Assembly (NCBI GenBank): GCA_963695175.1
Contig: CAVOGG010000006.1
Span: 38,052-102,051, forward strand
DNA length: 64,000 bases
Direction: 5' to 3'
From: an uncultured Actinomycetota bacterium
Lineage (GTDB): Bacteria > Actinomycetota > Actinomycetes > Actinomycetales > Dermatophilaceae
The first letter of the stretch is position 1. Each line of letters begins with the position of its first letter. Shown here piece after piece: positions 5,556-32,189 of this stretch. The notes below the pieces were generated by a model. The model was not told where the DNA came from and did not search any database. It was given only the letters and a program-made list of their open reading frames with translations. A program made the translations under genes and the position numbers.

Positions 5556-5637
5556 GAGGTCCTCCGGGACGTGCCCTCGGGCGGTGCGGATGGGGTGGGA
5601 TGGCGCCGGTCGCAGGGGCCGGGCCACGGGTGTGACG

Positions 5638-14863: not shown

Positions 14864-15489
14864 GTAGGTGGTCGCGGCCGGCTGGTGCCGCTGGGCGCCG
14901 GTGTGCCGCAGGCCTGCTCGTGCCAGGCCTGCTCCTTGTGCCGCTGGCGGGTTGCTCCTCCGACGAGCCCTTTCCCGGCTCCGACATCCGCCCCACGGCG
15001 TCGCCGTCGGCGACCGTCACGCCGGTCCCGGCGCCCCCGGTCGGCAGCCGGGAGGTGACCGGGCGCGGGTGGACGATGGCCGTGCCGGGCCAGTGGGAGG
15101 AACGGCGCCGGACCCTGTCGACCGGTGAGGTGGCGCGGTGGAGCGAGCCGTCGAGCGACGGAGGGCCACGGGTCGCGGTGTCCGTGGTCGTCGAGACGGC
15201 CCCCACCAGCCCGCTGCTCGAGCAGAGCTACCGCCTCGAGCAGCGCCTGCGCGAGAACGACCTGCGGCCGGTGCGCTCGGCGGTGCCCGGGCCGGACCCC
15301 GACCGTCCCGGGGTGCTCGTGCAGTGGACGGAGAACTCGCGCGGCGACGAGCAGCGCCGCGAGGTGTGGCAGCTGTTCCTCGCGGGCCCGGACTCCAGCA
15401 TCGTCAACGTCGTCGGCTTCGCCCCGGCCGACGGTCTCGGGGCCTCGCGCGTGCCGGAGGTCATGGGCACCGTGCGGGTGCAGCGATGA
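14860..15489 (+). CDS. Lipoprotein, possibly PsbP/LpqN-like
   Basis: Lipobox LAGC after a hydrophobic stretch; WTMAVPGQW motif; GTGA overlap with the FHA stop. Confidence 0.75.
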   Translation: MSRWSRPAGAAGRRCAAGLLVPGLLLVPLAGCSSDEPFPGSDIRPTASPSATVTPVPAPPVGSREVTGRGWTMAVPGQWEERRRTLSTGEVARWSEPSSDGGPRVAVSVVVETAPTSPLLEQSYRLEQRLRENDLRPVRSAVPGPDPDRPGVLVQWTENSRGDEQRREVWQLFLAGPDSSIVNVVGFAPADGLGASRVPEVMGTVRVQR

Positions 15490-16820: not shown

Positions 16821-17515
16821 CCGGAGCGCTCGCGGCCGGGCTCCTCGGGGCGCTCGCCGGTGGGCTGGCCGGCGCGCTCGCCCACCGCTACCTCAGGACC
16901 CGTCGCTACCGCTACGCCGACGAGTCGGGGCTGCCCGAGCGCGACACCCGGTGGGTCCTGGTCGTCACCCCGCTGGCCACCGGGCTGGTCGCGGCGGGGC
17001 ACGTGCCGGAGCGCCCGGCGCTCGGCGTGCTGCTCGCGGCATCCGTGCCGGTGCTCGCCGTGCTCAGCGCCATCGACCTCGACACCCGCCGCCTCCCCGA
17101 CCGCTGGGTGTTCCCCTCGTCGGCGGCCGCCCTCGCCGGGCTGGGTGTCGTGTCACTGCTCGAGGGCTCGACGGCCCCCCTCACCGCGGGCCTCGTGGCG
17201 GGCGCCGTGCTCGGCGCCTTCTACCTCGTCAACGTGGTCGTCGGCGAGCTCGTGGGCAGCGGGGGCGGGATGGGGCTCGGTGACGCCAAGCTCGGGGTGC
17301 TGCTCGGCCTGCTCCTGGGCCCGCTGTCGTGGGCGCACGTCGTCGTGGCCACCGTGCTCGCGTTCCTCGCCGCGGGGGTCCAGGCCGGGTGGATGGTGCT
17401 CGGGCGCGGGGCGGGGCGGGGCGCGCACCTCGCGTTCGGCCCGCACATGGCGGGTGCCGCCGTGGCAGTGCTCGCCGCCCCAGGGGTGGTCGCCGTCGTC
17501 GAGGCGGTCGGATGA
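16817..17515 (+). CDS. Prepilin peptidase (A24 family, TadV/CpaA-like)
   Basis: AIDLDTRRLPD and GMGLGDAKL catalytic Asp motifs, LAFGP C-terminal motif, multiple TM helices. Confidence 0.92.
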   Translation: MTGALAAGLLGALAGGLAGALAHRYLRTRRYRYADESGLPERDTRWVLVVTPLATGLVAAGHVPERPALGVLLAASVPVLAVLSAIDLDTRRLPDRWVFPSSAAALAGLGVVSLLEGSTAPLTAGLVAGAVLGAFYLVNVVVGELVGSGGGMGLGDAKLGVLLGLLLGPLSWAHVVVATVLAFLAAGVQAGWMVLGRGAGRGAHLAFGPHMAGAAVAVLAAPGVVAVVEAVG

Positions 17516-17874
17516 GCGCGCCACTCCCGCGCTTCGGGCCCGGGCCCCGGCAGCTGGTCGTCGACGGGCGAGCGGTCGCACCGCTCGCGGTGGCCGACAC
17601 CCCCGCGCAGCGGCGGAAGGGACTGCTGGGCACGAGCGGCGTCGACGGTGCCCTCTGGATCACCCACTGCCCCAGCGTGCACATGGTCGGGATGCGCTAC
17701 CCCATCGATGTCGCCGTGCTCGACCGGCACGGGCGGGTGCTGAAGGTCGCCACCCTGCGGGCCGGGACCGGGATGACGCGCCCGCGGTTGCGCGCCCGCG
17801 TCACGGTCGAGGCCGCCGCCGGATCGCTCGCCCAGTGGGGCGTGCAGCGCGGCTGCGTGCTGAGCATCGGCTGA
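17512..17874 (+). CDS. DUF192 family protein
   Basis: VADTPAQRRKGLLG, SVHMVGMRYPIDV, VEAAAG motifs. Confidence 0.85.
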   Translation: MSAPLPRFGPGPRQLVVDGRAVAPLAVADTPAQRRKGLLGTSGVDGALWITHCPSVHMVGMRYPIDVAVLDRHGRVLKVATLRAGTGMTRPRLRARVTVEAAAGSLAQWGVQRGCVLSIG

Positions 17875-18092
17875 CCCGGCACGACCGTTCGGCCGTGCGG
17901 GTGTGACGGGTGGGGCTGCCCGGATGTTGCGAGGCCCGTGTGACGGCCCGCCCGGACGCGGGCCCATGACGACGGGCCCGCTATGGGCCTTGGGACCCGG
18001 GTGTTGGGCCCCGGGGGGCCGCTTAGCGTGTCGAGCATGCCGATCGCGGGGGGGCCGACGCGGGGGGGCCGCGCCGGGGGCGTCGGCCCGGT

Positions 18093-18671
18093 TCAGCCGA
18101 GCCCGCGCCGCAGGCCGCGAGCCCTGGGGTCGACGAGCGCGGCGAGCCCGAGCAGGGCCACCCCGGCGACGACGATCGACAACGGGTACCGCGAGGGCCC
18201 GGCCGTCGTCGGCAGCGCCCAGACGACCGCGTCGCGCATCTGCGGGCCGCTGCACATGAGGCGGTCGTTGGCGCCGGTCGTGCCGACGTGCACGCTCGGC
18301 TCGAGGGAGGTCTGGGCGACCACCCGGGTGCCGAGGACGTCGGCATCGGCGGGCACCCGCAGGCTCCGGTCACCCTCGGTCGTGAACAGGGTGCACCCGA
18401 GATCCGCCGGTCCTGGCACGCTCCCGTCGCGCAGCGGAGCCACGAAGAGGGTGGTGCCGGAGTCGAACCACGGGCTCCTTCCGGCCAGCGTCGTCTCTCC
18501 GGGCAGCAGCTGCTGCGGCTCCGGTCGGTCCATCGACCACGCGACGACTCCCACGACGATCGCGGTCAGCCCCAGCAGTGCGCTGAGCGCGCCCAGGGCG
18601 AGCGCGATGCCGTGGGAGCGGCGGCTGTTGGTCCGGCGGCGCCGGCGCGCCTGCCTCGTCGAGTTCTTCAT
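18093..18671 (-). CDS. Hypothetical membrane protein (two TM helices flanking an extracellular loop)
   Basis: ATG 18671 with AAAGGA RBS; basic N-terminus, two hydrophobic segments, two Cys. Confidence 0.65.
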   Translation of the reverse strand: MKNSTRQARRRRRTNSRRSHGIALALGALSALLGLTAIVVGVVAWSMDRPEPQQLLPGETTLAGRSPWFDSGTTLFVAPLRDGSVPGPADLGCTLFTTEGDRSLRVPADADVLGTRVVAQTSLEPSVHVGTTGANDRLMCSGPQMRDAVVWALPTTAGPSRYPLSIVVAGVALLGLAALVDPRARGLRRGLG

Positions 18672-18768
18672 GGTTCCTTTCATCGTGGGCGAGGGTCGGG
18701 TCTGGATAAACTCCAGCCTGCGCACGGGCCCATCGTCCATGCCGGGGGACGTGCTGGGGGAGTTAGGA

Positions 18769-19575
18769 ATGTCGTTGTCGATCTGTGTCGTCGATCCTTC
18801 GCGTGCCACCACCGAGATCGAGGACTGGGGTTTCGGCGACGACGTCGCCGTCGTCACCGGGCGGCTCGGCGGCCCCGCGCTCGCGGCGCGGCTGCGTCCC
18901 GGCATCCGGCCCGGTTCCCGACTGGTCGTGCTGCACCGCCCGGCCGACCTGCCGGCGGCGGCACTCGTCGCCAACGTCGTCTCCGGTGCCCTTCCCCAGC
19001 TCGCGGTGACCCGTCTGCCGGTGGGGTCGAGCCTGCTGGGCGCCACCGTGCTCGGCCTCGAGGCGGCGCGCATCGAGGGGGAGTCGGACGGCACGCGGGT
19101 CACCCGGCTCGCCGGCACCCTCGACGGCGCCACCAGCGGCGCGTGGCTGTCCCGCGTCACCCGGCTCGCCTCGCCGAGCCCGAGCTTCGGCCAGCACCTG
19201 CGCTCCCTGCTGCCCGGCGGCCCGCGCTTCGTCGCCGTCCACGGGCCGCACGGCGGGGTGGTCCGGGCCGAGCCCGACGGGTACGACGGGTCGTCCTCGG
19301 GCCGGCTCGTCATCGGCGCCCCGGCCGACTCCGTGGCCGCCGAGCAGCTGCGAGCGTGGTACGGCAGCGACGACGTCGTGCACGTACCGCCGGTGCTCGC
19401 CGACGCCCGCCTGGTCTACGGCAACGCGGGGGCTGAGTTCACCGTCGTCACCGAGGCGCTCGCCGACCCCGGCCCGGTGGTCGGCACGTGCCCCGTGTGC
19501 CACGACGCGCTGCACGGCACCGCCTGCGCGTTCTGCCACGTCAACCCCCGCACCACCGAGGAGAGCACCGCATGA
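18769..19575 (+). CDS. Hypothetical protein with C-terminal zinc ribbon, first gene of the tad operon
   Basis: ATG 18769 after GGAG/AGGA; candidate -10 TAAACT at 18707-18712; CPVC...CAFC motif; ATGA overlap with cpaB. Confidence 0.72.
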   Translation: MSLSICVVDPSRATTEIEDWGFGDDVAVVTGRLGGPALAARLRPGIRPGSRLVVLHRPADLPAAALVANVVSGALPQLAVTRLPVGSSLLGATVLGLEAARIEGESDGTRVTRLAGTLDGATSGAWLSRVTRLASPSPSFGQHLRSLLPGGPRFVAVHGPHGGVVRAEPDGYDGSSSGRLVIGAPADSVAAEQLRAWYGSDDVVHVPPVLADARLVYGNAGAEFTVVTEALADPGPVVGTCPVCHDALHGTACAFCHVNPRTTEESTA

Positions 19576-20303
19576 ACCCCCGCCAGCGCCGAGGGCTGCT
19601 CTTCGTCCTCGTCTCGTTCGTCGTCGCGGTGGGCACCTTCTTCGCCGTGTCCGCCTACGTCGCGAACGTCAACTCCCAGGTGGGGTCCCGGGTGACCGTC
19701 TACCAGGCGCGCCAGGCGGTCGGCGCCTACACGCCGCTCGGCCCCGACAACCTCGAGGCCGTCGAGGTGCCCGAGCGCTGGGTGTCGAAGTCGTCGGTGC
19801 TCTCGCTCGACGAGCTCCAGGGCCGCCGGATCGGCTTCCGGCTCAACCCCGGCACGACCGTGAGCTCCGACATGCTCATTCCCAGCAGCGCGCTGTCGTC
19901 CACCGAGCGTGAGGTCGCCATCAACGTCGACTCCGTCACCGGAGTGGCCGGCCGCGTGCGCCCCGGTGACCGCGTCGACATCTACGCCGTGTTCGCCGAC
20001 GTGCCCGGGCTCCCGAAGTCGGTGCGCATCCTCGTGCGCGACGTGCGCATCGTCTCCATCGCCGGCGAGCAGACGGTCACCCAGAGCAGCGCCGCGGGTG
20101 GCACGGCGGAGCAGAAGGTCATCCCCGTCACCCTCGCCCTCGAGCCCGACCAGGCCCTGTCGGTCTCGTACGCGGCGGCGTTCGCGGCCGAGGTGCGCCT
20201 CGTGGCCCTGCCCAACGACGTCGGCACCAACCGGCAGGGCGAACCGAACAACTACGACGCCTCCGAGCTCGGTGGCAAGGCCGTTCTCGAGAAGGCGAAC
20301 TGA
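19572..20303 (+). CDS. cpaB: Flp pilus assembly protein CpaB (RcpC/TadC-associated SAF domain)
   Basis: N-terminal TM helix, SAF-like domain, GVAGRVRPGDRVDI motif, VTLALEP. Confidence 0.92.
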   Translation: MNPRQRRGLLFVLVSFVVAVGTFFAVSAYVANVNSQVGSRVTVYQARQAVGAYTPLGPDNLEAVEVPERWVSKSSVLSLDELQGRRIGFRLNPGTTVSSDMLIPSSALSSTEREVAINVDSVTGVAGRVRPGDRVDIYAVFADVPGLPKSVRILVRDVRIVSIAGEQTVTQSSAAGGTAEQKVIPVTLALEPDQALSVSYAAAFAAEVRLVALPNDVGTNRQGEPNNYDASELGGKAVLEKAN

Positions 20304-22084
20304 TGCGCATCCTCATCGGCATGTCGAACGGGACCATCGAGTCCGACCTGAGGTCGCTGCTCGAGGAGCTCGACGACACCCAGGTCATCGGCGTCGCGCA
20401 GACGAGCAGCATGGTGCTCGACTACGCATCACGGCTCGACCCCGACATCGTCGTGCTCCACGAGCACCTGGGGCCCGAGCCGGTGCTGCAGACCATCCGC
20501 GACTTCGGCGCGCGGCACCCGAGCGTGGCGGTGCTCGAGGTCTCGGCCGAGCGCACGCCCACGACCGTCATCCGGGCGATGGAGGCCGGCGCCCGCGGGG
20601 TCATTGCGCACCCGTTCGCGTTCGAGGACCTCTCGGCCAAGGTCACCGCGGCCAGCGACTGGTCGCGGCAGATGAAGCGCATCCTCGCCGGTGCCATCGC
20701 CCAGGCGGGCTCGGCCCGCGGCAAGGTGATGGCGGTGGTCGGCGCCAAGGGGGGCGTGGGAACGACGACCCTCGCGACGCATCTGGCCCTGGACCACCTG
20801 ACCGCCAACCCCAACCGGCGGGTGTGCCTGGTCGACCTCGACTTGGAGAAGGGCGACGTCAGCGCGGTGCTCGACGTGCGGCAGGCGGTGTCCATCGCCG
20901 ACCTCGCGAAGGTGCACCAGGACCTCTCCGGCAGCACCGTCAACGACGCCGTCGTGCAGCACGAGTGCGGCCTGAACCTGCTGCTCGGCCCGGCCGACGT
21001 GCGGCTGACCGAGCTGATCACCGCAGAGGCGCTGCGCCCGATCTTCGCGCTGCTGCGCCGTGAGTTCGACCTCGTCGTCGTCGACGGCGGCGGCTCGGTC
21101 TCGCCCGCCCAGGCCTCGGTCGTCGAGCTCGCCGACGAGACGGTCGTCGTCACCACCGCTGACGTGCTCGCGGTGCGGGCGATGCGCAAGCGGATCCTCG
21201 CGTGGGAGGCGCTCGGCGTCACCGACGAGAGTGCGCTGCGGGTCATCGTCAACAAGGTCGACCGCTCGAGCATCTTCCCCGCTTCCGCGGTGGCCCAGCT
21301 CACCTCCGCCGTGGTCCTCACGGCGACCGTTCCGTTGTCGGTGCGCGCGCTGGAGCCGGCGATGAACGAGCGCGACCCCCGCGCCGTCACCGAGGTGGCG
21401 TGGTGGCGCCTGATGACCCAGCTGCGGCGCGAGCTCGACCTCGAGGACGCCCGGCCGGCGGCCGTGAAGCCGTCGCGCGGGGCGCGCGGTCGTCGGCCCG
21501 CCGAGCGCGAGCATGAGGTCCCGGCGGCGGGAACGGCGGGCGAGGAGCAGAACGCTCCCGCCGGCTCGGTGGCCCGGCTGGGCCGGCGCGGCGGCGTCCG
21601 GGGCGAGCGGACTGCAGCCCCGGCCTCCGAGGTCGCCGCCGCCGCTGCTGCCGCGGAGGCCGCTGCCGCCGCCGCCGAGGAGGCCGCTGCCGCCGCTGCG
21701 GATGCCGCGGCAGTCGCCGAGGTCGCCGAGGTCGGGGGACGCCGCCGGCGCGAGGCCGGCCAGGTGGCCCTGGAGAACGTGGTGCTGCTCCCGCTCATCC
21801 TCTTCATCGCCCTCGCGGCGTGGCAGGTGGTCGCCATCGGGCTGACCTTCGTCATGTCGGGCAACGCCTCGCGGGTCGCGGCTCGCGAGTACTCGGTCAC
21901 CGGCAGCCAGTCCAGCGCCCAGGCGGCGGCTCGCGACCGCTCTCCGTGGGCCTTCGACGACCTCACCGTCTCGGTCTCCGGCGACGAGGTGACCGTGCGG
22001 ATGCAGATTCCCGCGGCCGGCCCCGCCAGCCTGAAGTTCCCCCAGCAGCTGACATCGACGCGGTCGGCGGTGAGCGAGCGATGA
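20303..22084 (+). CDS. cpaE: CpaE/TadZ-like protein (receiver + MinD-like ATPase) fused to a C-terminal TadE-like pilin
   Basis: Receiver-like N-terminus, GAKGGVGTTT, LVDLDLEKGD, VVDGG; Ala/Glu-rich linker; RRREAG|QVALEN prepilin motif, TM helix and AAREYS TadE motif, with no stop in between. Confidence 0.85.
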   Translation: MRILIGMSNGTIESDLRSLLEELDDTQVIGVAQTSSMVLDYASRLDPDIVVLHEHLGPEPVLQTIRDFGARHPSVAVLEVSAERTPTTVIRAMEAGARGVIAHPFAFEDLSAKVTAASDWSRQMKRILAGAIAQAGSARGKVMAVVGAKGGVGTTTLATHLALDHLTANPNRRVCLVDLDLEKGDVSAVLDVRQAVSIADLAKVHQDLSGSTVNDAVVQHECGLNLLLGPADVRLTELITAEALRPIFALLRREFDLVVVDGGGSVSPAQASVVELADETVVVTTADVLAVRAMRKRILAWEALGVTDESALRVIVNKVDRSSIFPASAVAQLTSAVVLTATVPLSVRALEPAMNERDPRAVTEVAWWRLMTQLRRELDLEDARPAAVKPSRGARGRRPAEREHEVPAAGTAGEEQNAPAGSVARLGRRGGVRGERTAAPASEVAAAAAAAEAAAAAAEEAAAAAADAAAVAEVAEVGGRRRREAGQVALENVVLLPLILFIALAAWQVVAIGLTFVMSGNASRVAAREYSVTGSQSSAQAAARDRSPWAFDDLTVSVSGDEVTVRMQIPAAGPASLKFPQQLTSTRSAVSER

Positions 22085-22425
22085 GACGCCGCGGCGAGCG
22101 CGGCACGGCATCCCTGGAGTTCCTGGCCCTCGGGCCGTTCGTGCTGCTCGTCGGCTTCCTGGTGTGGCAGCTCGCGGTCGGGGCCTGGGCCGCGACCTCC
22201 GCCAACGAGGCCGCCCGCGCCGCTGCCCGCGCGGCCAGCCTCGGCCAGGACCCCGGCCGGGCCGCCGAGCGCGCCCTGCCCGGCGGGCTGCGCAACCACA
22301 CCCTCACCGGGGGTCGGTCCGGCGACGGCTACCGCTACACGGTGCGGGTCGAGGTCCCGGCCTTCTCCGCCGTCGGGCTCGACCCGGTGAGCCGCACCGT
22401 CGAGATGCCGGCGGAGCGACCGTGA
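22081..22425 (+). CDS. tadE: TadE-like minor pilin
   Basis: ERG|TASLEF prepilin motif, TM helix, ANEAARAAARAAS. Confidence 0.88.
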   Translation: MRRRGERGTASLEFLALGPFVLLVGFLVWQLAVGAWAATSANEAARAAARAASLGQDPGRAAERALPGGLRNHTLTGGRSGDGYRYTVRVEVPAFSAVGLDPVSRTVEMPAERP

Positions 22426-23750
22426 GCAGGTCCTACGGCTCGTTCATCGGCGCCGCGGCGGCCGGGCGGGTCGGCACCGAGGACGACTCGCTGATCACGA
22501 CCTTCCGTCGCCTCCTCCTCGAGGAGGTCGACCTCCACGAGCTGAGCAAGCTCGAGCCGAGCCAGCGTCGCGCGCGCCTGGAGCGCGTCATCGCCCACCT
22601 CGTCTCGCGCGAGGGCGTCATCCTCTCGACGAGCGAGCGCAACCTGCTCGTGCGGCGGGTGGTCGACGAAGCGGTCGGCCTCGGTGTGCTCGAGCCGATC
22701 CTCGCCGACCCGACGGTGAGCGAGATCATGATCAACGGGCACGAGACGATCTACGTCGAGCGCAGCGGCCGGCTGGAGCGGTGGCCCAGCGGGTTCACGA
22801 ACGAGGAGCAGCTGCTCCAGACGATCGACCGCATCGTCTCCACGGTCAACCGGCGCGTCGACGAGTCGAGCCCGATGGCCGACGCCCGGCTGCCGGCCGA
22901 CACCCGGATGCCGCGCGGTGCCCGCGTCAACGTCGTGCTCCCCCCGCTCTCCCTCAACGGGCCCACGGTGACGATCCGGCTGTTCCCGACCGCCATCTCG
23001 CTCCCGCGCCTCATCGAGTGGGGCTCGCTCAACGCCGACCTCGCCGCGCTGCTCCAGGCCTGCGTCGAGGCACGGCTCAACGTCGTCGTGTCCGGCGGCA
23101 CCGGCTCGGGCAAGACCACGCTGCTCAACGCGCTCTCCAGCTTCATCTCGACCAAGGAGCGCATCGTCACCATCGAGGATGCCGCCGAGCTGAGCCTGGA
23201 CCAGCCGCACACCATCCGCCTCGAGACCCGCCCGCCGAACATCGAGGGCCGCGGGCAGGTCACCATCCGCGACCTCGTGCGCAACTCGCTGCGCATGCGA
23301 CCCGACCGGATCATCGTCGGGGAGTGTCGCGGCGGCGAGGCGCTCGACATGCTGCAGGCGATGAACACCGGCCACGAGGGGTCGCTCACCACGGTGCACG
23401 CCAACAGCCCCGGCGACGCCCTCGCCCGGCTCGAGACGCTGGCCACGATGAGCGACGTCGAGGTGCCGTTCCACGCCATCCGCGACCAGGTGAACTCGGC
23501 CATCGACGTCATCGTGCAGCTCAACCGGCACTCCGACGGTGCCCGGCGGGTCGTCGAGACCTCCTACCTGGCCTCGCGGCGGCAGGAGGACTTCGACCTC
23601 GTGCCGCTCGTCACCTGGGACCCGATGCACGTCGACGACGTCGCCCGCACCCGCGGCCGGTTCGTCACGCACCAGGTGCCTGAGGCGCTGCGGCGCCGGC
23701 TCGCCGAGGCGGGCGTCGCGCTCCCGGCCTTTCTGGAGCAGGCGTCGTGA
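22422..23750 (+). CDS. cpaF: Tad pilus ATPase CpaF/TadA
   Basis: GGTGSGKTT Walker A, TIEDAAEL, LRMRPDRIIVGE Walker B, AMNTGHEGSLTTVHANS His boxes. Confidence 0.97.
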   Translation: MSRSYGSFIGAAAAGRVGTEDDSLITTFRRLLLEEVDLHELSKLEPSQRRARLERVIAHLVSREGVILSTSERNLLVRRVVDEAVGLGVLEPILADPTVSEIMINGHETIYVERSGRLERWPSGFTNEEQLLQTIDRIVSTVNRRVDESSPMADARLPADTRMPRGARVNVVLPPLSLNGPTVTIRLFPTAISLPRLIEWGSLNADLAALLQACVEARLNVVVSGGTGSGKTTLLNALSSFISTKERIVTIEDAAELSLDQPHTIRLETRPPNIEGRGQVTIRDLVRNSLRMRPDRIIVGECRGGEALDMLQAMNTGHEGSLTTVHANSPGDALARLETLATMSDVEVPFHAIRDQVNSAIDVIVQLNRHSDGARRVVETSYLASRRQEDFDLVPLVTWDPMHVDDVARTRGRFVTHQVPEALRRRLAEAGVALPAFLEQAS

Positions 23751-24667
23751 TCGCCGCCATCTTCGTCGGCGCCGTCGCCGCGGCCGTTCTCGCGCTGCTG
23801 GGCGTGCGGGAGTTCGGCCGGGCCGCCCGCGACCGGCACGTCGCCATCACCGGCGCCGAGACCGGCCTCACCGACGACGAGCCCAACCTGCTCGAGGTGC
23901 TCGACCTTCGCTTCCGGCGCACCCGGGCCGGCCGGTGGCTGGTGCGCGAGCTCGACGTCGCCGGCATCAACCGCCGCCCGTCGGTGGTCTTCCTCGGCGG
24001 GCTCGCGGTCGGCGTCATCGGCTCGGTCCTGTTGTGGACGCTGCTCGCGCCGCTGCTCGGCGTCATCGGGAGCCTGCTCGGCCTGCTCGCCGTGCGCGCC
24101 TACCTGCGCCGGGCCCGCGAGCGCCGCCGGGAGGCCTTCGTCGGGCAGCTGCCCGAGCTCGCCCGGGTGCTGGCGAACGCCAGCTACGCGGGCCTGTCGC
24201 TGCCGACCGCCATCGCCATCGCCGGCGACGAGCTGCCCGAGCCGGCGCGCACCGAGCTGTCGCGGGTCGCCACCCGGTTGCGCTTCGGGTCGCCGCTCGC
24301 GCGGGCGCTGGAGGAGCTGCGTGAGCGGGTCGGGTCGCGAGAGACGTCGGTGCTCATCTCGACGCTCGTCGTCGCCTCGCGCAGCGGCGGCTCGCTCGTC
24401 ACGGCCCTGCGCGACATCGCCGAGACCCTCGAGCAGCGCAAGGAGACCCGCCGCGAGGTGCGCACCGTGCTCGCCCAGCCGGTCGTCACGTCGTACTTCG
24501 TCATCGTGCTCGGTGTCGTCATGCTCCTCATGCTCAACGTGATGCAGCCCGGCACGGTCGACAAGATGACCCGCCAGCCGCTGGGGCAGGTCGCGCTCCT
24601 GCTCGCGTTCGCCATCTTCGGGTCCGGCTTCTACGCCATCCGCAAGATGACGAGGTTCGACATATGA
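23747..24667 (+). CDS. tadB: Tad inner-membrane platform protein TadB (T2SS F domain)
   Basis: FVGQLPEL, GGSLVTALRDIAE, TM pattern, position after cpaF. Confidence 0.9.
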   Translation: MIAAIFVGAVAAAVLALLGVREFGRAARDRHVAITGAETGLTDDEPNLLEVLDLRFRRTRAGRWLVRELDVAGINRRPSVVFLGGLAVGVIGSVLLWTLLAPLLGVIGSLLGLLAVRAYLRRARERRREAFVGQLPELARVLANASYAGLSLPTAIAIAGDELPEPARTELSRVATRLRFGSPLARALEELRERVGSRETSVLISTLVVASRSGGSLVTALRDIAETLEQRKETRREVRTVLAQPVVTSYFVIVLGVVMLLMLNVMQPGTVDKMTRQPLGQVALLLAFAIFGSGFYAIRKMTRFDI

Positions 24668-25569
24668 GCTGGCTGGTCGGCACCGTCCCCGGGGTCGTCG
24701 CCGCGGTGGCGGTCTACCTCCTGCTGCGCGGGTACCGGATGCTGCGCACCGACCCGGCCGCCGACCTCGCGGTCGAGGACATCGCCATCCTGCAGGGGGC
24801 GACGCAGAAGCGTGCCCGGTCGCAGGGACCGGTCTCCGCGGTCGCGTACCGGCTGGCCCCCCGGGTGCGACGGCTCCTGCCCGCGAATGCCGTGACCTTC
24901 CTGCGCCGGCAGGTCGACCAGGCCGGCCGCCCCGAGGGCATCGACGTCGACTCGGTCATCGCCCGCGGCGTCATGTGGATGCTGCTCGTGTCTCCCGCCG
25001 TGGTGATCTTCGTCCTGCAAGGCCGGTGGCTGCCCGTGCTGATGGCGCTCGCGGCGATCCTCGTCATGCCGCTCGCCCGGTTGTCGACCCTGGCCCGCAA
25101 GCGGCGCGAGCGCATCGACCGCGACCTCCCGGACTTCCTCGACGTGCTCGCCGTGACGGTGAGCGCCGGCATCGGCTTCCGCCAGGCCCTCGGCGTGGTG
25201 TCGGAGCGCTTCGGCGGTCCGTTGTCGGAGGAGGTCACGACCACCCTGCACCAGATCACGAACGGCGCGAGCGTGCGCTCGGCCTTCCGGGCCATGCGCG
25301 ACCGCAACACCTCCGAGTCGATCGAGGAGTTCACGACGGCCTACCTGCAGGCCGAGGAGCTGGGGGCGCCGCTCGTCGACACCCTCAACCAGATCGCCGC
25401 CGACATGCGGCGCGCCTCCGCGCAGCGCTACCGGCAGAAGGCGGCGGCCATCGCGCCTCGGGTCACGCTGCTCACCACGGTCGTCATGGTGCCCGGGGCG
25501 ATGATCCTGCTGATCGTCGGCCTCTACATCGGCTCCGACCTGGACCTCGGGTCGTTCGGTGGCATCTGA
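24664..25569 (+). CDS. tadC: Tad inner-membrane platform protein TadC (T2SS F domain)
   Basis: IDRDLPDFLDVLAVTVSAGIGF, ELGAPLVDTL, position after tadB. Confidence 0.9.
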   Translation: MSWLVGTVPGVVAAVAVYLLLRGYRMLRTDPAADLAVEDIAILQGATQKRARSQGPVSAVAYRLAPRVRRLLPANAVTFLRRQVDQAGRPEGIDVDSVIARGVMWMLLVSPAVVIFVLQGRWLPVLMALAAILVMPLARLSTLARKRRERIDRDLPDFLDVLAVTVSAGIGFRQALGVVSERFGGPLSEEVTTTLHQITNGASVRSAFRAMRDRNTSESIEEFTTAYLQAEELGAPLVDTLNQIAADMRRASAQRYRQKAAAIAPRVTLLTTVVMVPGAMILLIVGLYIGSDLDLGSFGGI

Positions 25570-26755
25570 ACGGGCGCTGTCGCCGACGCGCCTGCAGCTG
25601 CGCGTCGCCCAGGTCGCGTTGCTCGTGCGGCTGGCGCTGCTCTTCGTCCTCGAGCTCGTGTGGGTGATCCGCGGCGACGGGCTCGCGACGCTCGGGGTCG
25701 TCGCAGCAGCCGGGGTGTCCTACCTGGCGCTCAGCTCGGCCCGGGCGCGGGTGGTGCTCATGCGGCATCCGCTGCTCGTGCTCCTCGACGCCGTGCTGGT
25801 GGCGGTCCTCGTCGGCATCGTCGGTGTCGACACCCCGTTCGCCCTCGCGCTCGCGACCTCGGCGCTGCTCGTGGGGCTGTGGCTGCCCGTCGTCCCCGGC
25901 CTGCTCGTGGTCCTGGTCCTCGTGGCGGTCGACCTCGTGCTCCTCACCGCCCGGCCCGTCGACGATGCCGGCCTGGTCGCCTACGTGCTCGTGGTGCCGG
26001 CCGTGCTCGTCACCTTGTGGCTGCTCGGGCTCGCGATCCAGCGCTCAGGTCGTGCCGAGGCACGAGCCCAGGCGTCGCTGCGTGACGCCATGTCGGTGGC
26101 GGCCACCGCCCAGGAGCGCGGCCGGATCGCCCGCGAGATGCACGACACCATCGCGAAGTCGCTCCAGGCGATGGCGCTGACCGCCTCCAGCATCCCGCGC
26201 CACCTCGACCGGGACGTCGACGTGGCGGCCGCCCGGGCCCGCGAGCTCGAGCAGGACTGCACTGCGGTCATCGCCCAGGTCCGCGAGCTGATGGGCGAGC
26301 TGCGCACCCCCGTTGCGCAGCTGCCCTTCAGCGAGGCCGTGGCGCAGGCCGCCGACGAGTGGAGCAGCACCACGGGTCGCCGGTGCACGACGCGTCTGGA
26401 CCCGGTCGAGGTCACCGACGGGCACGTCCGCTATGAGCTGCTCATGGCGCTGCGCGAGGCCCTCGACAACGTGCGCCAGCACGCCGGTCGGTGCACGGCC
26501 CGGGTCACGCTCGAGGCGGCGGGCGCTGACCGCCTCGCGCTCACCGTCAGCGACGACGGCCAGGGCAGCGACCCCGAGCACGTGGCGGGCGCACCGGCGC
26601 GCGGCCACTTCGGGGTGGTCGGGATGGCGGAGCGGATGGCCGGGGTCGGCGGAACCTTCCGCCACGAGACCCGGCACGGACAGGGCACCACGGTGACCTT
26701 CGAGGTGCACCGGCAGGGCCTCGTGGAGAAGCAGCAACGAGAGGTGGTGGCCTGA
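25559..26755 (+). CDS. Membrane sensor histidine kinase (HisKA_3, NarL-partner type)
   Basis: ERGRIAREMHD phospho-His motif, EALDNVRQHA N box, DDGQG G1, GHFGVVGMAER G2; several N-terminal TM helices. Confidence 0.93.
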   Translation: MASERALSPTRLQLRVAQVALLVRLALLFVLELVWVIRGDGLATLGVVAAAGVSYLALSSARARVVLMRHPLLVLLDAVLVAVLVGIVGVDTPFALALATSALLVGLWLPVVPGLLVVLVLVAVDLVLLTARPVDDAGLVAYVLVVPAVLVTLWLLGLAIQRSGRAEARAQASLRDAMSVAATAQERGRIAREMHDTIAKSLQAMALTASSIPRHLDRDVDVAAARARELEQDCTAVIAQVRELMGELRTPVAQLPFSEAVAQAADEWSSTTGRRCTTRLDPVEVTDGHVRYELLMALREALDNVRQHAGRCTARVTLEAAGADRLALTVSDDGQGSDPEHVAGAPARGHFGVVGMAERMAGVGGTFRHETRHGQGTTVTFEVHRQGLVEKQQREVVA

Positions 26756-27390
26756 TGGCCCACACGGTGTGCATCGTCGACGACAGCGCCGTCATGCGCC
26801 GGGGGATCCGTTCTCTCGTCGAGACCGACGACCAGCTCGAGATCGTCGCCGAGGCGGGGAACGGCGAGCAGGCGCTGGCCGCGGTGCGTCGGCTCCGGCC
26901 CGACGTCGTGCTCCTCGACGTGCGGATGCCGACCCGCGACGGGATCTCGGTGGTCCGGGAGATCTCCGAGGTGTCGCACGTCCTCATGCTCACCTTTTCC
27001 GACGAGAGCGAGGTCGTGCTCGCCGCCCTCGACGAGGGGGCCATCGGCTACCTCGTGCACGGCACCTTCGACGCCGACCGGCTGGGGGCGATGGTGCGTG
27101 CCGCGGCGGAGGGCACCGGCAGCCTGTCCGGTCCGGCCCTGGCGGCGCTGCGCGGCGGACGGGCCCCGGTGGCCGGCCCGGGAGGACGCGAGCGCTTCGA
27201 CCTGTCCGAGCGGCAGGCCGAGGTGATGGACCTCGTGGCCGCCGGCAAGACCAACGGGGCGATCGCGCGTGAGCTGTTCCTGTCGGAGAAGACGGTGAAG
27301 AACCACATCAACCAGATCTTCCCGCGGCTCGCGGTGACCACGCGGGCCGAGGCGATCGTGGCGTGGCTGGGAACCCGGCCCGGGTCCTGA
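26755..27390 (+). CDS. NarL/LuxR-family response regulator
   Basis: IVDD, VLLDVRMP phospho-Asp, LSERQAEVMDLVAAGKTNGAIARELFLSEKTVKNH HTH. Confidence 0.95.
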   Translation: MAHTVCIVDDSAVMRRGIRSLVETDDQLEIVAEAGNGEQALAAVRRLRPDVVLLDVRMPTRDGISVVREISEVSHVLMLTFSDESEVVLAALDEGAIGYLVHGTFDADRLGAMVRAAAEGTGSLSGPALAALRGGRAPVAGPGGRERFDLSERQAEVMDLVAAGKTNGAIARELFLSEKTVKNHINQIFPRLAVTTRAEAIVAWLGTRPGS

Positions 27391-27400
27391 CCGGGCCGAG

Positions 27401-27457
27401 TTGGGCCCCGCGCTGGGCCTGCGGACCCTGTGCGCCCCGGTGCGCCGTCCGTAGCGT
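27401..27457 (+). promoter_or_regulatory. Putative regulated promoter of flp (copy 1 of shared motif)
   Basis: TTGGGCCC-N5-TGGGCCTGC-N3-CCCTGTG-N19-TAGCGT; near-identical to 32134-32189. Confidence 0.6.
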
Positions 27458-27522
27458 TCTCGGTGTCAGGACGAGGACCGCAGGCCCTCGGACACCGGGG
27501 AATTCGGACCAAGGAGAACGCC

Positions 27523-27726
27523 ATGACCCACCAGCTCGCCGCTCGCTACTCCACCTACGCCGCCACGCTCAAGGACCGCCGCGAGGCCGGCCAGAACTCG
27601 CTCGAGTACCTCGGCATGGCGCTCGTCGCCGGCGTTGTCATCGCCGCCATCTACGGCGTCGTGACCGGCGCGGACGTGGGCGCGAAGATCAGCGACGCCT
27701 GGGCGAAGATCACCGGCGCGTCGTGA
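27523..27726 (+). CDS. flp: Flp major pilin (type IVc)
   Basis: 67 aa, AAGGAG RBS, REAG|QNSLEY Flp motif, hydrophobic helix. Confidence 0.92.
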   Translation: MTHQLAARYSTYAATLKDRREAGQNSLEYLGMALVAGVVIAAIYGVVTGADVGAKISDAWAKITGAS

Positions 27727-27735
27727 CGTCACCGG

Positions 27736-27773
27736 GTCGCCGGGACGGGGTCGACAGACCCCGTCCCGGCGAC
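27736..27773 (+). terminator. 17-bp perfect stem-loop after flp (attenuator or mRNA-stabilising hairpin)
   Basis: GTCGCCGGGACGGGGTC-GACA-GACCCCGTCCCGGCGAC. Confidence 0.75.
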
Positions 27774-27827: not shown

Positions 27828-28421
27828 GTGCAGCACCGAATCCGTCGTCGTGAGGACGGCCAGGCGGTCACCGCCGTGGCCATCGTCGCCGTGCTCATCC
27901 TCGTGGCCGCCGCGCTCGGCATCGTCTTCCGCACGGGCAAGGTCACGAGCGAGGTGAGCAAGATCCAGTCCGGCGCGGATGCCGCGGCGCTCGCCGGGGC
28001 GCAGCAGGTGCGCGAGGACGCCCACGGCCGCATCGTCAGCTCGTTGCAGTCGCGCGTGCCGCGCAGCTTCTGGACGTGCGGCGACGGGCAGGGACGCGCG
28101 CAGTCGTTCGCCGGGCGCAACGACACCGACCTGACGACGTACTGCTACTACCCGCTCGCCGACCGCGTCGAGGCCACCGTGCGCAGCGACTTCGTCACCG
28201 AGACCGGAAGCCGCGAGAGCGCCTCCGCGGTTGCCGAGACCGGCCGCCGCCTCGGGCCGTGCATCGTGGTCGCCGTCCCTGGCTCGACCACCGGATACGA
28301 GACCACCGCCGACTGCGGCGACATCGTGGTGCGGGTGTACGTCGACACCACCGGCAACGTCACGCTGCTGACCACCCCCTCCGAGGTCAAGCGGATGTTC
28401 CGGGTCACGCTGCGCGAGTGA
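27828..28421 (+). CDS. TadG-like pilus-associated protein
   Basis: REDG|QAVTAV prepilin-like motif, TM helix, QSGADAAALAGA TadG-type motif, several Cys. Confidence 0.8.
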   Translation: MQHRIRRREDGQAVTAVAIVAVLILVAAALGIVFRTGKVTSEVSKIQSGADAAALAGAQQVREDAHGRIVSSLQSRVPRSFWTCGDGQGRAQSFAGRNDTDLTTYCYYPLADRVEATVRSDFVTETGSRESASAVAETGRRLGPCIVVAVPGSTTGYETTADCGDIVVRVYVDTTGNVTLLTTPSEVKRMFRVTLRE

Positions 28422-28509: not shown

Positions 28510-29124
28510 TCAGCCGTTGGCCGGCGTCGCGTCCGTGACGGGGACCTTCACGTCGGCGAACCAGGGGCTGGTCAGCGTCACCTCGGTCGTCCCGGCGGGC
28601 AGGGGCGGGTACAGGGCCGAGATGGGCGGGGTCTCGACGCCCTGGGTGAGGCGCAGGGCGGGGTCGGACAGGGCCGACCACCCGTCATCCTGCTTGTCGA
28701 AGGTGATGATCGAGTACTTCTTTCCGCCGGCCACCATGACCGGGTACTTCTCCCAGAACCGCACGTTGGAGTCACGGGAGCTGGCGCCGGGGGCGCCGGT
28801 GACCCGCCAGACGAGCAGGGTCGAGGCGTCGGACCGCGTCAGGCGGTAGAAGCCGAACGTTGCGCCCCGGTACGACGAGGAGGCCTTGGCGGGCGTCGTC
28901 GCGATCTGCGTGAGTGGGGCGGCGCCGCCGACGACGGCGGAGGACTGGTCCTGGGCGGTCGGGGAGGCGCTGGCGGACGGGCTGCCGCCCGGGGCGCCGG
29001 AGGCACTCTTCGAGGCGGTGGGGTCGGGGGCGCCGGGGCTGAAGGTGCACCCACCCAGCACGGTGGCGGCCACCGCCGTGGCGGCGATGGCGGCGAGGGG
29101 TCGTCGGGTCATCGCAGGCCTCAC
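28510..29124 (-). CDS. Lipoprotein (paralog of 30275-30832)
   Basis: LGGC lipobox; SSYRGATF, STLLVW, YPVM, ALYPPLPA, TLTSPWFADVKVPVT. Confidence 0.8.
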   Translation of the reverse strand: MRPAMTRRPLAAIAATAVAATVLGGCTFSPGAPDPTASKSASGAPGGSPSASASPTAQDQSSAVVGGAAPLTQIATTPAKASSSYRGATFGFYRLTRSDASTLLVWRVTGAPGASSRDSNVRFWEKYPVMVAGGKKYSIITFDKQDDGWSALSDPALRLTQGVETPPISALYPPLPAGTTEVTLTSPWFADVKVPVTDATPANG

Positions 29125-30185
29125 TTCGGCAGGGTGATCGTCACGCGGCGGTTGAGGGCTCGCCCCTGCGCGGAGCCGTTGTCGGCGATGGGGTCGGTCT
29201 CACCCTTGCCGACCGCGGTGACCCGGATGCCCCGGGGGATCTTCGGGGCCAGGGCTGTGGCCACCGCCGCCGCACGCCGCTTGGACAGGTCGAGGTTGTA
29301 GGCGTCGGGGGCGTTGCTGTCGGTGTGGCCGGTGACGGTGATCGCCCCGCTGCTGCCCGCGGCGGTGATCTGCTTCGCGGCCTCGGTGATCACGGCGTTG
29401 GCGGCCTTGGTCAGGGTCGCCTTGTCGGTGGCGAAGAGCACCGAGGCGTCCAGGTCGAGCTCGGCGCTGCCCTTGCGCTTGGCCTGCGTCACCTTCTTCC
29501 GGACGTCCTGCACCTGGCTGCGCAGGGCGAAGACGGCCCCCTCGGGATCCACGACCTCGGCCAGCCGGGCGGTGTCGACCCGTGGCCACCCGGTGCCGAC
29601 GGCCGGTGCGGCCTCGTCGACCACCGGCTCGAGCGGGCCGTCCTGCACGGGCACGCCCTGGACGATCTGCGAGCCGACGAGCACGTCGACAGCGGTGACA
29701 CCCGCCGGCACCGGGGCCAGCGCCACCCACCCCACGGTCGCGCGGCCCAGGGCGTCCTCGGGCGCGCGCAGGTCGAGGTTCTTCGTCGAGAGGCAGCGCC
29801 CCACCGCGTCCGTGCGCAGCGCGCTGTAGGCGGTTCCGCTCGCCACGTCGATGGCGGCCGCCGTGCAGGCCAGCCCGGTCGCGCCGTTCTGGTTGAGTGC
29901 GAACCAGTTCCCGTTGCCGTAGCTGTCGAAGAACGCGGCACCCCCGGTCTGGTCCTGCGCGCGCAGGCCGAGCGAGTAGTACAGGGCAGTGGCCCCGTCG
30001 ATGCGGCGCACCCCGTGCACCGTCAGGACGGCGAGCCGGGGGTCGCTGGCGTTGCCCATCCACGCCTGGCCGAGGACCGGCACCTCGGGGACGGTGGGCA
30101 GCGGGGGGCTCGTCGCGGCCCGGGCCGGCACCGCGGCACAGGCCAGTGCGGCGGCCGTGACGAGCACGGTCGCAAGGGTCTTCAT
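29121..30185 (-). CDS. Secreted protein with C-terminal OmpA-like peptidoglycan-binding domain
   Basis: Signal peptide; VLFATDKATL, GHTDS, YNLDLSKRRA, NRRVTI OmpA_C motifs. Confidence 0.9.
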   Translation of the reverse strand: MKTLATVLVTAAALACAAVPARAATSPPLPTVPEVPVLGQAWMGNASDPRLAVLTVHGVRRIDGATALYYSLGLRAQDQTGGAAFFDSYGNGNWFALNQNGATGLACTAAAIDVASGTAYSALRTDAVGRCLSTKNLDLRAPEDALGRATVGWVALAPVPAGVTAVDVLVGSQIVQGVPVQDGPLEPVVDEAAPAVGTGWPRVDTARLAEVVDPEGAVFALRSQVQDVRKKVTQAKRKGSAELDLDASVLFATDKATLTKAANAVITEAAKQITAAGSSGAITVTGHTDSNAPDAYNLDLSKRRAAAVATALAPKIPRGIRVTAVGKGETDPIADNGSAQGRALNRRVTITLPK

Positions 30186-30274
30186 CGCGGTGGTCCCCCC
30201 TCGATGGCAAACAGGTCCGCCGTGACCCTACCTACCTGAACCCGGATCTTGGGCCCAAGGGGCCGACGAGACGA

Positions 30275-30832
30275 CTACTCGTGGGTGACGGGCACCGTGA
30301 CGTCGCGGAACCACGGAGAGCTGAGGGTGACCGACGCAGCGTCTGCGGGCAGCGGCGGGTAGAGGGCCCCCTGCGGGTTCGGCTCAGCACGCATCGCCCG
30401 CATGTCGACGCACGCGCACTCGACCTCGCCGGTGGTCGCCTCGTAGGTGAGCACCGAGTACGACCGGGACTTCGTCGACAGGACCGGGAAGTTGCGCCAC
30501 CCCCGGACGTCGAAGTCCGAGCCCGCCGACAGGGTCCGGGGATGGGCGGCCGACCACACGACGAGCGTCGACCGCTTGCTGGTGCGCACCTCGAGGATGG
30601 TGAAGGTCGCCCCGGAGTACGACGAGTCGTCGCGCGCGGGGGTGGTGGCCAGCGGTCGGAGTTCCTCGAGGTCGAGGAAGTCCGCTGTCGGCCCGACGTC
30701 CGACGGGGTGGGGCTCTTCGCGATCGTCAACCTCGGGCTGGGAGCGGGCGAGCCCGGGTCGGCCGTGCAGCCGGCGGCGAAGAGGGCGACGCTGAGGACG
30801 GCCGCGACCCAGCCGGCACGACGAGTGCTCAC
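30275..30832 (-). CDS. Lipoprotein (paralog of 28510-29124)
   Basis: GTG 30832 overlapping the upstream stop; FAAGC lipobox; SSYSGATF, STLVVW, FPVL, ALYPPLPA, TLSSPWFRDVTVPVT. Confidence 0.8.
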   Translation of the reverse strand: MSTRRAGWVAAVLSVALFAAGCTADPGSPAPSPRLTIAKSPTPSDVGPTADFLDLEELRPLATTPARDDSSYSGATFTILEVRTSKRSTLVVWSAAHPRTLSAGSDFDVRGWRNFPVLSTKSRSYSVLTYEATTGEVECACVDMRAMRAEPNPQGALYPPLPADAASVTLSSPWFRDVTVPVTHE

Positions 30833-31638
30833 GGTGTCGCGCTCGCGGTCGGCGAGGGGGTGGCGGACGGCGCGGTGGAGGCCGACGGTGCCGGGGACGG
30901 TCCGGGCGAAGGCCGGCTCGCGGGTCGCTTCGCCACGTGCAGCTGGAGCGTCTTGATGGCACCGTCGGGGCGCGCGCCGCCGATGGCGACCGTGTCGACC
31001 CGTGGCCACCCGGTGCCCACGACGGGGGCCGGGGTGTCGGCGGTCGGCTCGAGCGCGCCGGCGCCCACCGGCACACCCGGGATGAAGGCGCTGCCGATGA
31101 GCACGTCGACGGTGCGCACCGTGGCGGGCACCGGTGCCAGGGCGATCCACTGCATGACCGCCCGGCCCGAGAGCCGCACCCGGTCGGTCTCGGCCACCGG
31201 GGGAGGCGCGGCGACGGCGCGGCCGGTCGCGGTGCGCAGCGCGCCGTAGGACCGCTTCCCCGGCACGTCGACCAGGGCCGCGGTGTCCATGAACGTCGCC
31301 CCCGCGGAGGCCTGCAGGGTGCCGAAGGTGTCCGGACCCGAGCCGTAGGCGGTCACCGGGAGCACCTCGGGGTCGGGGGCCTCCCCGGCGAAGCCGACGG
31401 AGTAGTAGAGGATCGTCGCGCCCTCGATGCGGCGCACCGCGTGCACCGTGACCACCATCGAGGGGGGCCGCTCCTCGCCCTGGCCGAGGCCGCCGACGAC
31501 GGCCTGACCCAGCACGGGCAGACCGGTGCCGACGGGGACGTCGCGCGAGATCGCGTCAGCGGGCGAGGCCATGGCGAGCAGTGCCGCCAGGGTGGTCGCC
31601 GCACACCCCGCGAGCATCCCCCGCCGTCCCCCGCCCAC
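30829..31638 (-). CDS. Secreted paralog of the N-terminal domain of the OmpA protein, lacking the OmpA domain
   Basis: Shares PVLGQA, TVHxVRRIxGATxLYYS, ALAPVPA, VDVLxGS, GTGWPRVDT with 29121-30185; ends in a Pro/Ser/Thr tail. Confidence 0.8.
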   Translation of the reverse strand: MGGGRRGMLAGCAATTLAALLAMASPADAISRDVPVGTGLPVLGQAVVGGLGQGEERPPSMVVTVHAVRRIEGATILYYSVGFAGEAPDPEVLPVTAYGSGPDTFGTLQASAGATFMDTAALVDVPGKRSYGALRTATGRAVAAPPPVAETDRVRLSGRAVMQWIALAPVPATVRTVDVLIGSAFIPGVPVGAGALEPTADTPAPVVGTGWPRVDTVAIGGARPDGAIKTLQLHVAKRPASRPSPGPSPAPSASTAPSATPSPTASATP

Positions 31639-31722
31639 GGGCCCGACAGTACCTCGCGGCGTGACAGGATCGGGCCCGGAGTCGCGGGGCCCGGGGGCCG
31701 TGACCGGAGGAGGGGACGCTCG

Positions 31723-32118
31723 GTGCGCACGGTGGGGTGGGTGATCGCGGGTCTGTGTGGCGCCGGCTTGGGCGCCGGCCTGCTCGGCATCCTCGGCCTC
31801 GCGGTGGGGGCCTCGACGACGAGTGTTCCCGCGTCGGTGGCGGGGCGCACGGCCCTCACCCTCGTGGCACTCGCCCTCGTTGCACTGCTCGTGAGCCGTC
31901 GTGGCCCGTGGTGGTGGTGGGCACCGCCCGTCGCCGTGCTGACCGCCGCCATGGCGCTGGACCCGCTGACCTGGACGGCATCCGCCCGCGCCGGCGGGCC
32001 GCTGTTCGGGGTGTGGGCCACCGGCTCGGCGCCGCTCGGCCTGGCCCTCGACCTGCTCGTCTGGCTCCTGGTCGCCCTCGGTGCGGTGTCCCTCGGCCTG
32101 CGCACCCGCGAGGACTGA
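31723..32118 (+). CDS. Small multi-TM hypothetical membrane protein
   Basis: GTG 31723 with GGAGGAGG RBS; about four hydrophobic segments. Confidence 0.65.
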   Translation: MRTVGWVIAGLCGAGLGAGLLGILGLAVGASTTSVPASVAGRTALTLVALALVALLVSRRGPWWWWAPPVAVLTAAMALDPLTWTASARAGGPLFGVWATGSAPLGLALDLLVWLLVALGAVSLGLRTRED

Positions 32119-32133
32119 GCGGACCCGCCCCGG

Positions 32134-32189
32134 TTGGGCCCGGGTGGGCCTGCAGGCCCTGTGGTGCCCGGCGACCGCCGCCCTAGCGT
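32134..32189 (+). promoter_or_regulatory. Putative regulated promoter (copy 2 of shared motif)
   Basis: TTGGGCCC-N3-TGGGCCTGC-N3-CCCTGTG-N20-TAGCGT, 38 nt upstream of ATG 32228. Confidence 0.6.

Follow-up and report, generated by a model that had tools for sequence, protein, structure and literature searches.

A repeat module in predicted promoters of flp and other Flp-leader genes at actinobacterial tad loci with an embedded two-component system

Proteobacteria are known to place Flp pili under two-component control, and a regulon of this type is in itself conceptually ordinary. In Pseudomonas aeruginosa, the PprAB system, which consists of the NarL/LuxR-family regulator PprB and the kinase PprA and is found at the tad locus, directly activates flp-tad-rcp, cupE, and bapA (PMC3510237). 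The accessible text of a report on Pectobacterium describes a second case, in which the two-component system ECA0785/ECA0786 flanks the flp/tad cluster and is needed for flp/tad transcription; the regulator in question is OmpR-type and not NarL-type, and the same text defines no binding site for it (PMC3767616).

The locus described here lies in a stretch of 64,000 nucleotides from an uncultured member of the Dermatophilaceae (hereafter, the window). It resembles PprAB in that a histidine kinase (HK) and a NarL/LuxR-type response regulator (RR) are encoded in or next to the tad locus, with flp as a target that is predicted here from a DNA motif; this is a likeness of family and location. The two systems differ in phylum and cell envelope, and in our case the pair is placed between tadC and flp, in an order that is fixed across Actinomycetota. 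Moreover, the kinase is a small HisKA_3 protein of the putative intramembrane type, and the additional members of the predicted regulon are proteins with Flp-type leaders. In the literature searched, we found no description of an actinobacterial HK-RR pair between tadC and flp, nor of its DNA motif.

At the level of the DNA, the sites bound by NarL of E. coli are "7-2-7" elements, in which two inverted heptamers (TACYYMT) separated by a 2-bp gap accommodate a dimer of GerE domains, and the core of the M. tuberculosis DosR/DevR site is GGGACT-WW-AGTCCC. The module at our locus likewise contains two inverted half-sites with a 2-bp gap, and the core of its distal copy, GGGCCT-GC-AGGCCC, has the same layout as the DosR core. 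However, because the heptamer is TGGGYCC and not TACYYMT, we consider the element to be a 7-2-7-like site and not a NarL box; it also differs from the latter by an extra heptamer located 12 bp upstream.

Matching sites upstream of flp and of a distal pilin-leader gene

Given that the window has a G+C content of 73%, genes were called by combining third-position G+C with Pfam (Table 1). Neither Flp nor the protein encoded by the distal gene has a match in Pfam or NCBIfam. The preliminary description of this DNA had pointed to a composite string shared by the regions upstream of flp (site 1) and of the distal gene (site 2), and had taken this as a sign that both genes are co-activated. The window contains both strings without a single deviation, and the predictions that follow from co-activation at the level of the sequence hold. 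One correction is required: since some 3 kb of minus-strand genes, including the gene for the OmpA-like protein, lie between flp and the distal gene, the latter is a transcription unit of its own and stands outside the flp operon.

Table 1. Genes and module copies in and around the tad island of the window
Feature	Position	Strand	Remarks
Weak fourth candidate site	15486-15545	+	perfect R2/R3 CTGGGCCCACGGGCCC, without a convincing -10; 15.1 bits, under the control maximum
423-aa protein, Flp-type leader	15549-16820	+	
A24 prepilin peptidase	16772-17515	+	
DUF192	17329-17874	+	
Third module copy	17972-18030	+	ACGGGCCCG, TGGGCCT-TG-GGACCC, 25 bp, TAGCGT; then ATG 18037 and hairpin 18048-18090
Membrane protein	18093-18680	-	
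Unnamed gene	about 18736-19575	+	
RcpC/CpaB	19488-20303	+	
TadZ-like	20303-22084	+	
TadA/CpaF	22164-23750	+	
TadB	23747-24667	+	
TadC (DUF5936)	24664-25569	+	
HisKA_3 histidine kinase	25559-26755	+	overlaps start of regulator gene
NarL/FixJ-type response regulator (REC + GerE HTH)	26755-27390	+	proposed binder; stop codon 11 nt before R1
Site 1 (flp), composite string	27401-27457	+	TTGGGCCC 27401-27408, N5, TGGGCCTGC 27414-27422, GGA, CCCTGTG 27426-27432, N19, TAGCGT 27452-27457
flp promoter, R1 (TTGGGCCC)	27401..27408	+	agrees with tTGGGCCCg, the consensus for flp promoters in other genera
flp promoter, R2-NN-R3	27414..27429	+	TGGGCCT-GC-GGACCCT; proposed regulator dimer site, predicted centre ~-43.5
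flp promoter, -10 box TAGCGT	27452..27457	+	23 bp 3' of R3; without -35 box
GTCAG, predicted flp transcription start region	27465..27469	+	58-nt leader; conserved across genera, start predicted
flp, 67-aa Flp-type pilin	27523-27726	+	leader ...EAG/QNSLEY...
Hairpin after flp	27739-27772	+	
TadG-like gene	27828-28421	+	followed by second hairpin
Minus-strand genes	28510-31638	-	include OmpA-family protein at 29121-30185
Small gene	about 31737-32118	+	
Site 2 (distal), composite string	32134-32189	+	TTGGGCCC 32134-32141, N3, TGGGCCTGC 32145-32153, AGG, CCCTGTG 32157-32163, N20, TAGCGT 32184-32189
Distal promoter, R1 (TTGGGCCC)	32134..32141	+	10 bp 5' of R2, 2 bp below consensus
Distal promoter, R2-NN-R3	32145..32160	+	TGGGCCT-GC-AGGCCCT; near-perfect palindrome GGGCCTGCAGGCCC
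Distal promoter, -10 box TAGCGT	32184..32189	+	24 bp 3' of R3; predicted start ~A32196
Distal gene, 496 aa	32228-33718	+	leader RERG/ATAAEY + hydrophobic helix; large C-terminal body without Pfam match

Within the window, TTGGGCCC-N3-5-TGGGCC occurs twice, against an expectation of 0.01. Perfect copies of the 19-mer TGGGCCTGCNNNCCCTGTG (with a free centre) are confined to sites 1 and 2 in the 4.31 Mb assembly, and a regular expression for the whole composite finds the same two sites only, with no match in the reversed genome; the motif is not common genome-wide, as co-activation would predict. A lone copy of the 19-mer with one mismatch, on contig 3, was discarded because it lies inside a coding region. 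When the two sites are aligned, identity is restricted to the motif blocks, and the spacers and 5' leaders differ. Moreover, the exact 19-mer is not kept as a conserved element in the GTDB genus of the window, where its matches are coding-sequence look-alikes, which argues that CCCTGTG, a clade-specific part of the string, lies outside the functional core.

Read from its 5' end, the module consists of a heptamer R1 (TGGGCCC), an inverted pair R2/R3 (TGGGYCY-NN-GGRCCC), 23-24 bp, and a -10 box of the form TAGNNT; R2 and R3 are thus two inverted heptamers with a 2-bp gap (7-2-7 geometry), and R1 lies 12 bp 5' of R2. The distal site departs from this consensus in three respects: its R1-R2 distance is reduced by 2 bp, its R3 has the sequence AGGCCC, and its spacer measures 24 bp. 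In both the flp and the distal promoter, no TTGACA-like hexamer was found at 16-18 bp, and there is no sigma-70 -35/-10 pair; scans with Rfam and for canonical sigma-70 promoters and terminators gave no match either.

The first T, the A, and the final T of the hexamer, at ~2.5 bits each, are the most conserved columns in flp promoters across genera, which bears out the proposal that TAGCGT represents a TANNNT -10 box. In addition, the start codon follows TANNNT by exactly 6 nt in five genomes, namely at the GDSL lipase genes of G007, G041, and G042 and in G339 and G070. As a general rule, the 5' end of leaderless actinobacterial mRNAs is the start codon. The leaderless layout of these genes therefore supports the hexamer as the -10 element, with transcription predicted to start 7 nt beyond it. 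By the same spacing, transcription is predicted to begin at ~G27465, inside the conserved GTCAG, and at ~A32196, which would place the R2/R3 dyad at ~-43.5 and R1 at ~-57 to -63. With the end of R3 23-24 bp before the -10 box, this predicted layout is that of a promoter dependent on an activator which overlaps the -35 region. The 5' leader of flp (27465-27522) opens with the GTCAG common to several genera, contains GAGGACCGCAGGCCCTCGGACACCGGGGA, which is kept within Dermatophilaceae, and has no Rfam match.

Conservation and specificity of the module

A TadC-alignment search of genome contigs led to 58 loci, all of which show the order tadZ-tadA-tadB-tadC-HK-RR, mostly followed by flp. They span Dermatophilaceae, Cellulomonadaceae, Georgenia, Propioniciclava, Microlunatus, Actinomyces, Egibacteraceae, and Solirubrobacterales, the closest being that of Phycicoccus jejuensis (TadC 93% identical). 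The gap between the RR gene and flp carries the module with a fixed N23 spacing in ~44 of the 58 loci; their consensus is tTGGGCCCg-NN-gtTGGGCCC-Nc-GGGCCC, 23 nt, (cCg)TAG.gT, ~8 nt, GTCAG. Sequence information is concentrated in R1, R2, and R3 and at three hexamer positions (the first T, the A, and the final T), while the 23-nt spacer is conserved in length and not in sequence. A comparison of orthologous upstream regions, which the preliminary description had suggested as a check, covers ~44 loci and 20 more genomes for flp and six genomes for the distal gene, and finds the repeats and TANNNT kept at fixed spacing and the other intergenic sequence diverged. Three congeneric genomes (TadC ~58% identical) share the HK-RR-flp order and have TTGGGYCC repeats, GGGCCCTGTGG, 19 nt, and TA(G/A)(C/T)GT in the corresponding gap. 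The best TadC match within the GTDB genus of the window is only 58-59% identical, compared to 93% in P. jejuensis, and of the 34 genomes in that genus just 4 have the same tad type; this distribution suggests that the tad island moves horizontally.

A position matrix with blocks for R1, R2/R3, and the -10 box and with flexible spacers was built from flp promoters of other genomes only and run on both strands. In the 4.31 Mb assembly, the flp site ranks first (43.0 bits), the distal site second (30.9 bits), and a third site at 17972-18030 follows closely (29.7 bits); the next match reaches 16.3 bits, and the best score in the reversed/complemented genome is 20.2 bits. A matrix without any training on this genome thus singles out both sites noted before and one more in the island. 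A rigid, ungapped matrix, which was rejected, matched the flp site only, the distal site being missed because of its shorter R1-R2 spacing. Elsewhere in the window, a single GGGCCC(AA)GATCC stands upstream of each of two duplicated minus-strand genes (31650-31700 and 30225-30262, both minus strand), ~15-20 nt before TACTGT or TAGGGT; the module matrix has no match there, and these sites may therefore belong to a different promoter type.

P. jejuensis retains the third site (24.7 bits) and P. avicenniae a weak version of it (14.8 bits), with TTAGCGTG-N5/6-ATG conserved, whereas Knoellia lacks it. The site is positioned 3' of the DUF192 gene and faces the 3' end of the convergent gene for a membrane protein. 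The open reading frame at 18037-19575 was rejected as its target, as the first 230 codons run antisense to the real minus-strand gene 18093-18680. The site may give rise to a short RNA, to an antisense transcript, or to transcription that reads through into the tad operon, and in the last case the operon would be autoregulated. The spacer of 25 bp and the position opposite the 3' end of a convergent gene indicate that not every copy of the module has an obvious target. The weak fourth candidate directly follows the stop codon of the preceding gene and lies ahead of the GTG at which the gene for the 423-aa Flp-leader protein starts; its R2/R3 is kept in P. jejuensis and Knoellia, and the sole conserved element close to the start codon is (A/C/G)ATGG, which is not a normal -10. 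The regulon that had been proposed for this DNA is probably larger than its two sites, with the third site and the weak fourth one as additions.

We further searched 401 genomes of the order (~1.5 Gb) with the strict pattern TGGGYCYN{3,6}TGGGYCYNNRGRCCCN{22,24}TANNKT, which yielded 22 matches in 21 genomes, compared to none for the reversed control pattern. A homologue of the NarL-type RR ends 10-100 nt upstream in 20 of the 21 matched loci (the exception is truncated by a contig end), and a Flp open reading frame lies within 260 nt downstream in 19 of them. Where a TadC orthologue is encoded (E<=1e-50), the strict motif is present in 18 genomes out of 29, versus 3 of the 372 that lack one, and these three still have an RR gene adjoining the motif; 11 genomes with a TadC orthologue have no match to the strict pattern. 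A loose pattern made up of R2/R3 and the -10 box only gave 33 matches against 14 for its control in the 401 genomes; loose matches were accepted only near flp or before Flp-leader genes. Those in G098, G304, G130, and G113 (a second, distant site) were treated as noise. Two genomes of one genus, at loci L157 (G201:C1:107670) and L158 (G113:C1:2521792), share a loose-pattern match (TGGGCCCTCAGACCCTCGACCGGAACC...TAGCGT) that is distant from tad, with no recognisable open reading frame downstream; either chance or conservation of a remote site may account for it.

Orthologues of the distal gene were found in P. jejuensis (89% identity), P. flavus (77%), P. avicenniae (74%), the congeneric genome G007 (70%), a Knoellia sp. 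(68%), and Janibacter sp. G56 (62%). All six upstream regions contain two or three GGGCCC-type repeats that end 23-24 nt before a -10 box, which is TAGCGT in four cases and TACGGT or TACTCT in the other two, and have diverged in the rest. In Knoellia and G007, the orthologue is located upstream of the tad operon and not downstream, and in Janibacter corallicola it lies within the flp operon and lacks a separate promoter. The module is also present at more distant homologues in Actinotalea and Cellulomonas (30-36% identity), which lie ~3 kb after flp.

The module also precedes genes for Flp-leader proteins that are not homologous to the distal one. In G007, G041, and G042, a copy of 36-39 bits stands upstream of a gene whose 373-aa Flp-leader product contains a GDSL/SGNH lipase domain (Pfam 1e-19); this gene, at 4856-6037 of locus L059 in G007 and also present in L056 and L057, has the layout TAGCGT-N6-ATG, is predicted to be leaderless, and lies ~4 kb after flp. 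Similarly, G339 and G070 carry the module before genes for Flp-leader proteins of 459 and 464 aa, and G201 and G132 before an operon for a small membrane protein and a Flp-leader protein of 455-462 aa. Overall, 52 of 53 matrix matches (>=18 bits, ~60 loci) precede an open reading frame that encodes a G-x4-E leader and a hydrophobic helix, the lone exception being the third site of this window. These findings substantiate the earlier claim that the motif links the cargo gene to the pilus independently, in that other Flp-leader genes carry the module in other genera.

The embedded regulator and competing explanations

The proposed binder has the domains of a REC plus LuxR-type HTH protein (Pfam Response_reg 6e-23, GerE 2e-17). 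Its best relatives of solved structure are NarL (1a04; 1e-27) and DevR (3c3w; 3e-26), and a comparison with NCBIfam gave no equivalog of NarL or of another named family. The gene for the adjoining kinase encodes HisKA_3 (4e-14) and HATPase_c (6e-11) domains, as would be expected of a cognate kinase. The N-terminus of the kinase (25559-26060, first 165 residues) comprises ~5 closely packed transmembrane helices and no large extracytoplasmic loop, and we believe that it is probably an intramembrane-type sensor which senses something within the membrane.

Every locus that bears the motif encodes the recognition helix EKTVKNH(I/V)NxIF. The loci of Actinomyces, Solirubrobacterales, and Egibacteraceae encode altered versions of this helix (among them KNY..AYP and KNHLSRIYE), and in these loci the motif is absent or replaced: at the Solirubrobacterales loci L108, L110, and L111, the same gene order is accompanied by an inverted repeat, GGGGTCCCAA-N4-TTTTGGGACCCC, in place of the module in the RR-flp gap, and Actinomyces loci have yet another sequence. 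This co-variation of helix and motif is confounded by phylogeny and is no more than suggestive.

Based on these comparisons, we consider it likely that the HK-RR pair embedded in the tad locus activates flp and genes for pilin-leader fusion proteins via the activator-dependent module. The adjacent membrane-embedded kinase would phosphorylate the NarL-type regulator, which most likely would bind R2/R3 as a dimer near -43.5, assisted by R1, and would recruit RNA polymerase, thus substituting for a -35 contact. As a result, flp would be switched on alongside separate units for large proteins with Flp-type prepilin leaders, here the 496-aa distal gene and perhaps its 423-aa paralogue. We propose that such parallel activation would allow the pilin and its pilus-borne or pilus-exported partners to be made together.

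Co-location of the motif and the regulator gene is no proof that the regulator reads the sites, and the tie between protein and DNA rests on this co-location and on the co-variation of helix and motif. The module could instead be read by a different factor, either a transcription factor encoded elsewhere or an alternative sigma factor, with the adjoining regulator acting on other targets, and the conserved CCGTAG, together with the conserved GTCAG after the -10, which hold more information than a bare TANNNT, would suit this idea. We regard it as unlikely, since the motif is found almost exclusively directly 3' of the regulator gene in at least five families, is gone where the recognition helix of the regulator changes, and is separated from the -10 box by a 23-bp gap that is unlike sigma -35/-10 spacing; moreover, the REC+GerE regulator is the only DNA-binding protein conserved in the tad loci. 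It is also quite unlikely that the embedded regulator reads the sites as a repressor or operator-binding protein, at a promoter that is driven otherwise. A position of the sites upstream of the -10 box (~-36 to -63) with the -35 box missing is the usual layout for activation, and a repressor site would be expected over the -10 box or the start, even though regulators of the NarL family can repress and a motif that starts 11 nt beyond the end of the regulator gene could modulate read-through from the tad operon.

A further possibility is that the resemblance of the two sites is a relic of a duplication that copied the pilin leader together with its promoter, and that the distal site is no longer functional. 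Flp and the distal protein do have homologous leaders (45% identity over ~60 residues), and the CCCTGTG common to both sites is clade-specific. However, the spacers and 5' leaders of the two sites are unrelated, all that distal-gene orthologues as remote as 62% identity retain upstream is the repeats and the -10 box, with their spacing fixed, and non-homologous cargo genes carry the module, all of which makes such a relic very improbable. Chance similarity of GC-rich intergenic DNA, or membership of a dispersed repeat family, has practically no probability left: although GGGCCC alone is frequent, with 2862 copies in a genome of 73% GC, the composite is genome-wide unique and the control for the strict pattern gave 0 matches in 401 genomes. 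Chance is excluded as the source of the resemblance between sites 1 and 2, and a dispersed, REP-like intergenic repeat was ruled out, as there are three module copies only, all within 14 kb of the tad island.

A predicted Tad regulon in Actinomycetota

Taken together, the module marks what we predict to be a small, previously undescribed pilus regulon across actinobacteria, and its interpretation as a response-regulator-dependent pilus promoter, an element of a familiar kind, is supported by strong comparative evidence. A broader reading, which we put forward tentatively and consider rather doubtful as a whole, would combine a dedicated Tad regulon of Actinomycetota with Tad-mediated export or display and with feedback by the kinase on the load of Flp-leader proteins. 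The non-pilin members, i.e. the GDSL lipase and the 496-aa, 423-aa, and 450-460-aa proteins, all have a Flp prepilin leader, and on this reading the Tad machine of these single-membrane bacteria would also export or display enzymes and large surface proteins. The five-helix kinase encoded beside tadC would monitor how much Flp-leader protein burdens the membrane in uncleaved or unassembled form, and would adjust its synthesis by feedback, in analogy to PilS, which senses PilA.

Finally, with 0 control matches in ~1.5 Gb, the motif is specific enough to serve as a search tool for genes that are co-expressed with the pilus, and it consistently finds large proteins and at least one enzyme with a pilin leader. 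The predicted co-regulation across several actinobacterial families provides evidence, independent of gene order, that ties pilin-leader proteins to the Tad system, and makes both a role of the fusion proteins on or through the pilus and the signal of the kinase directly testable.
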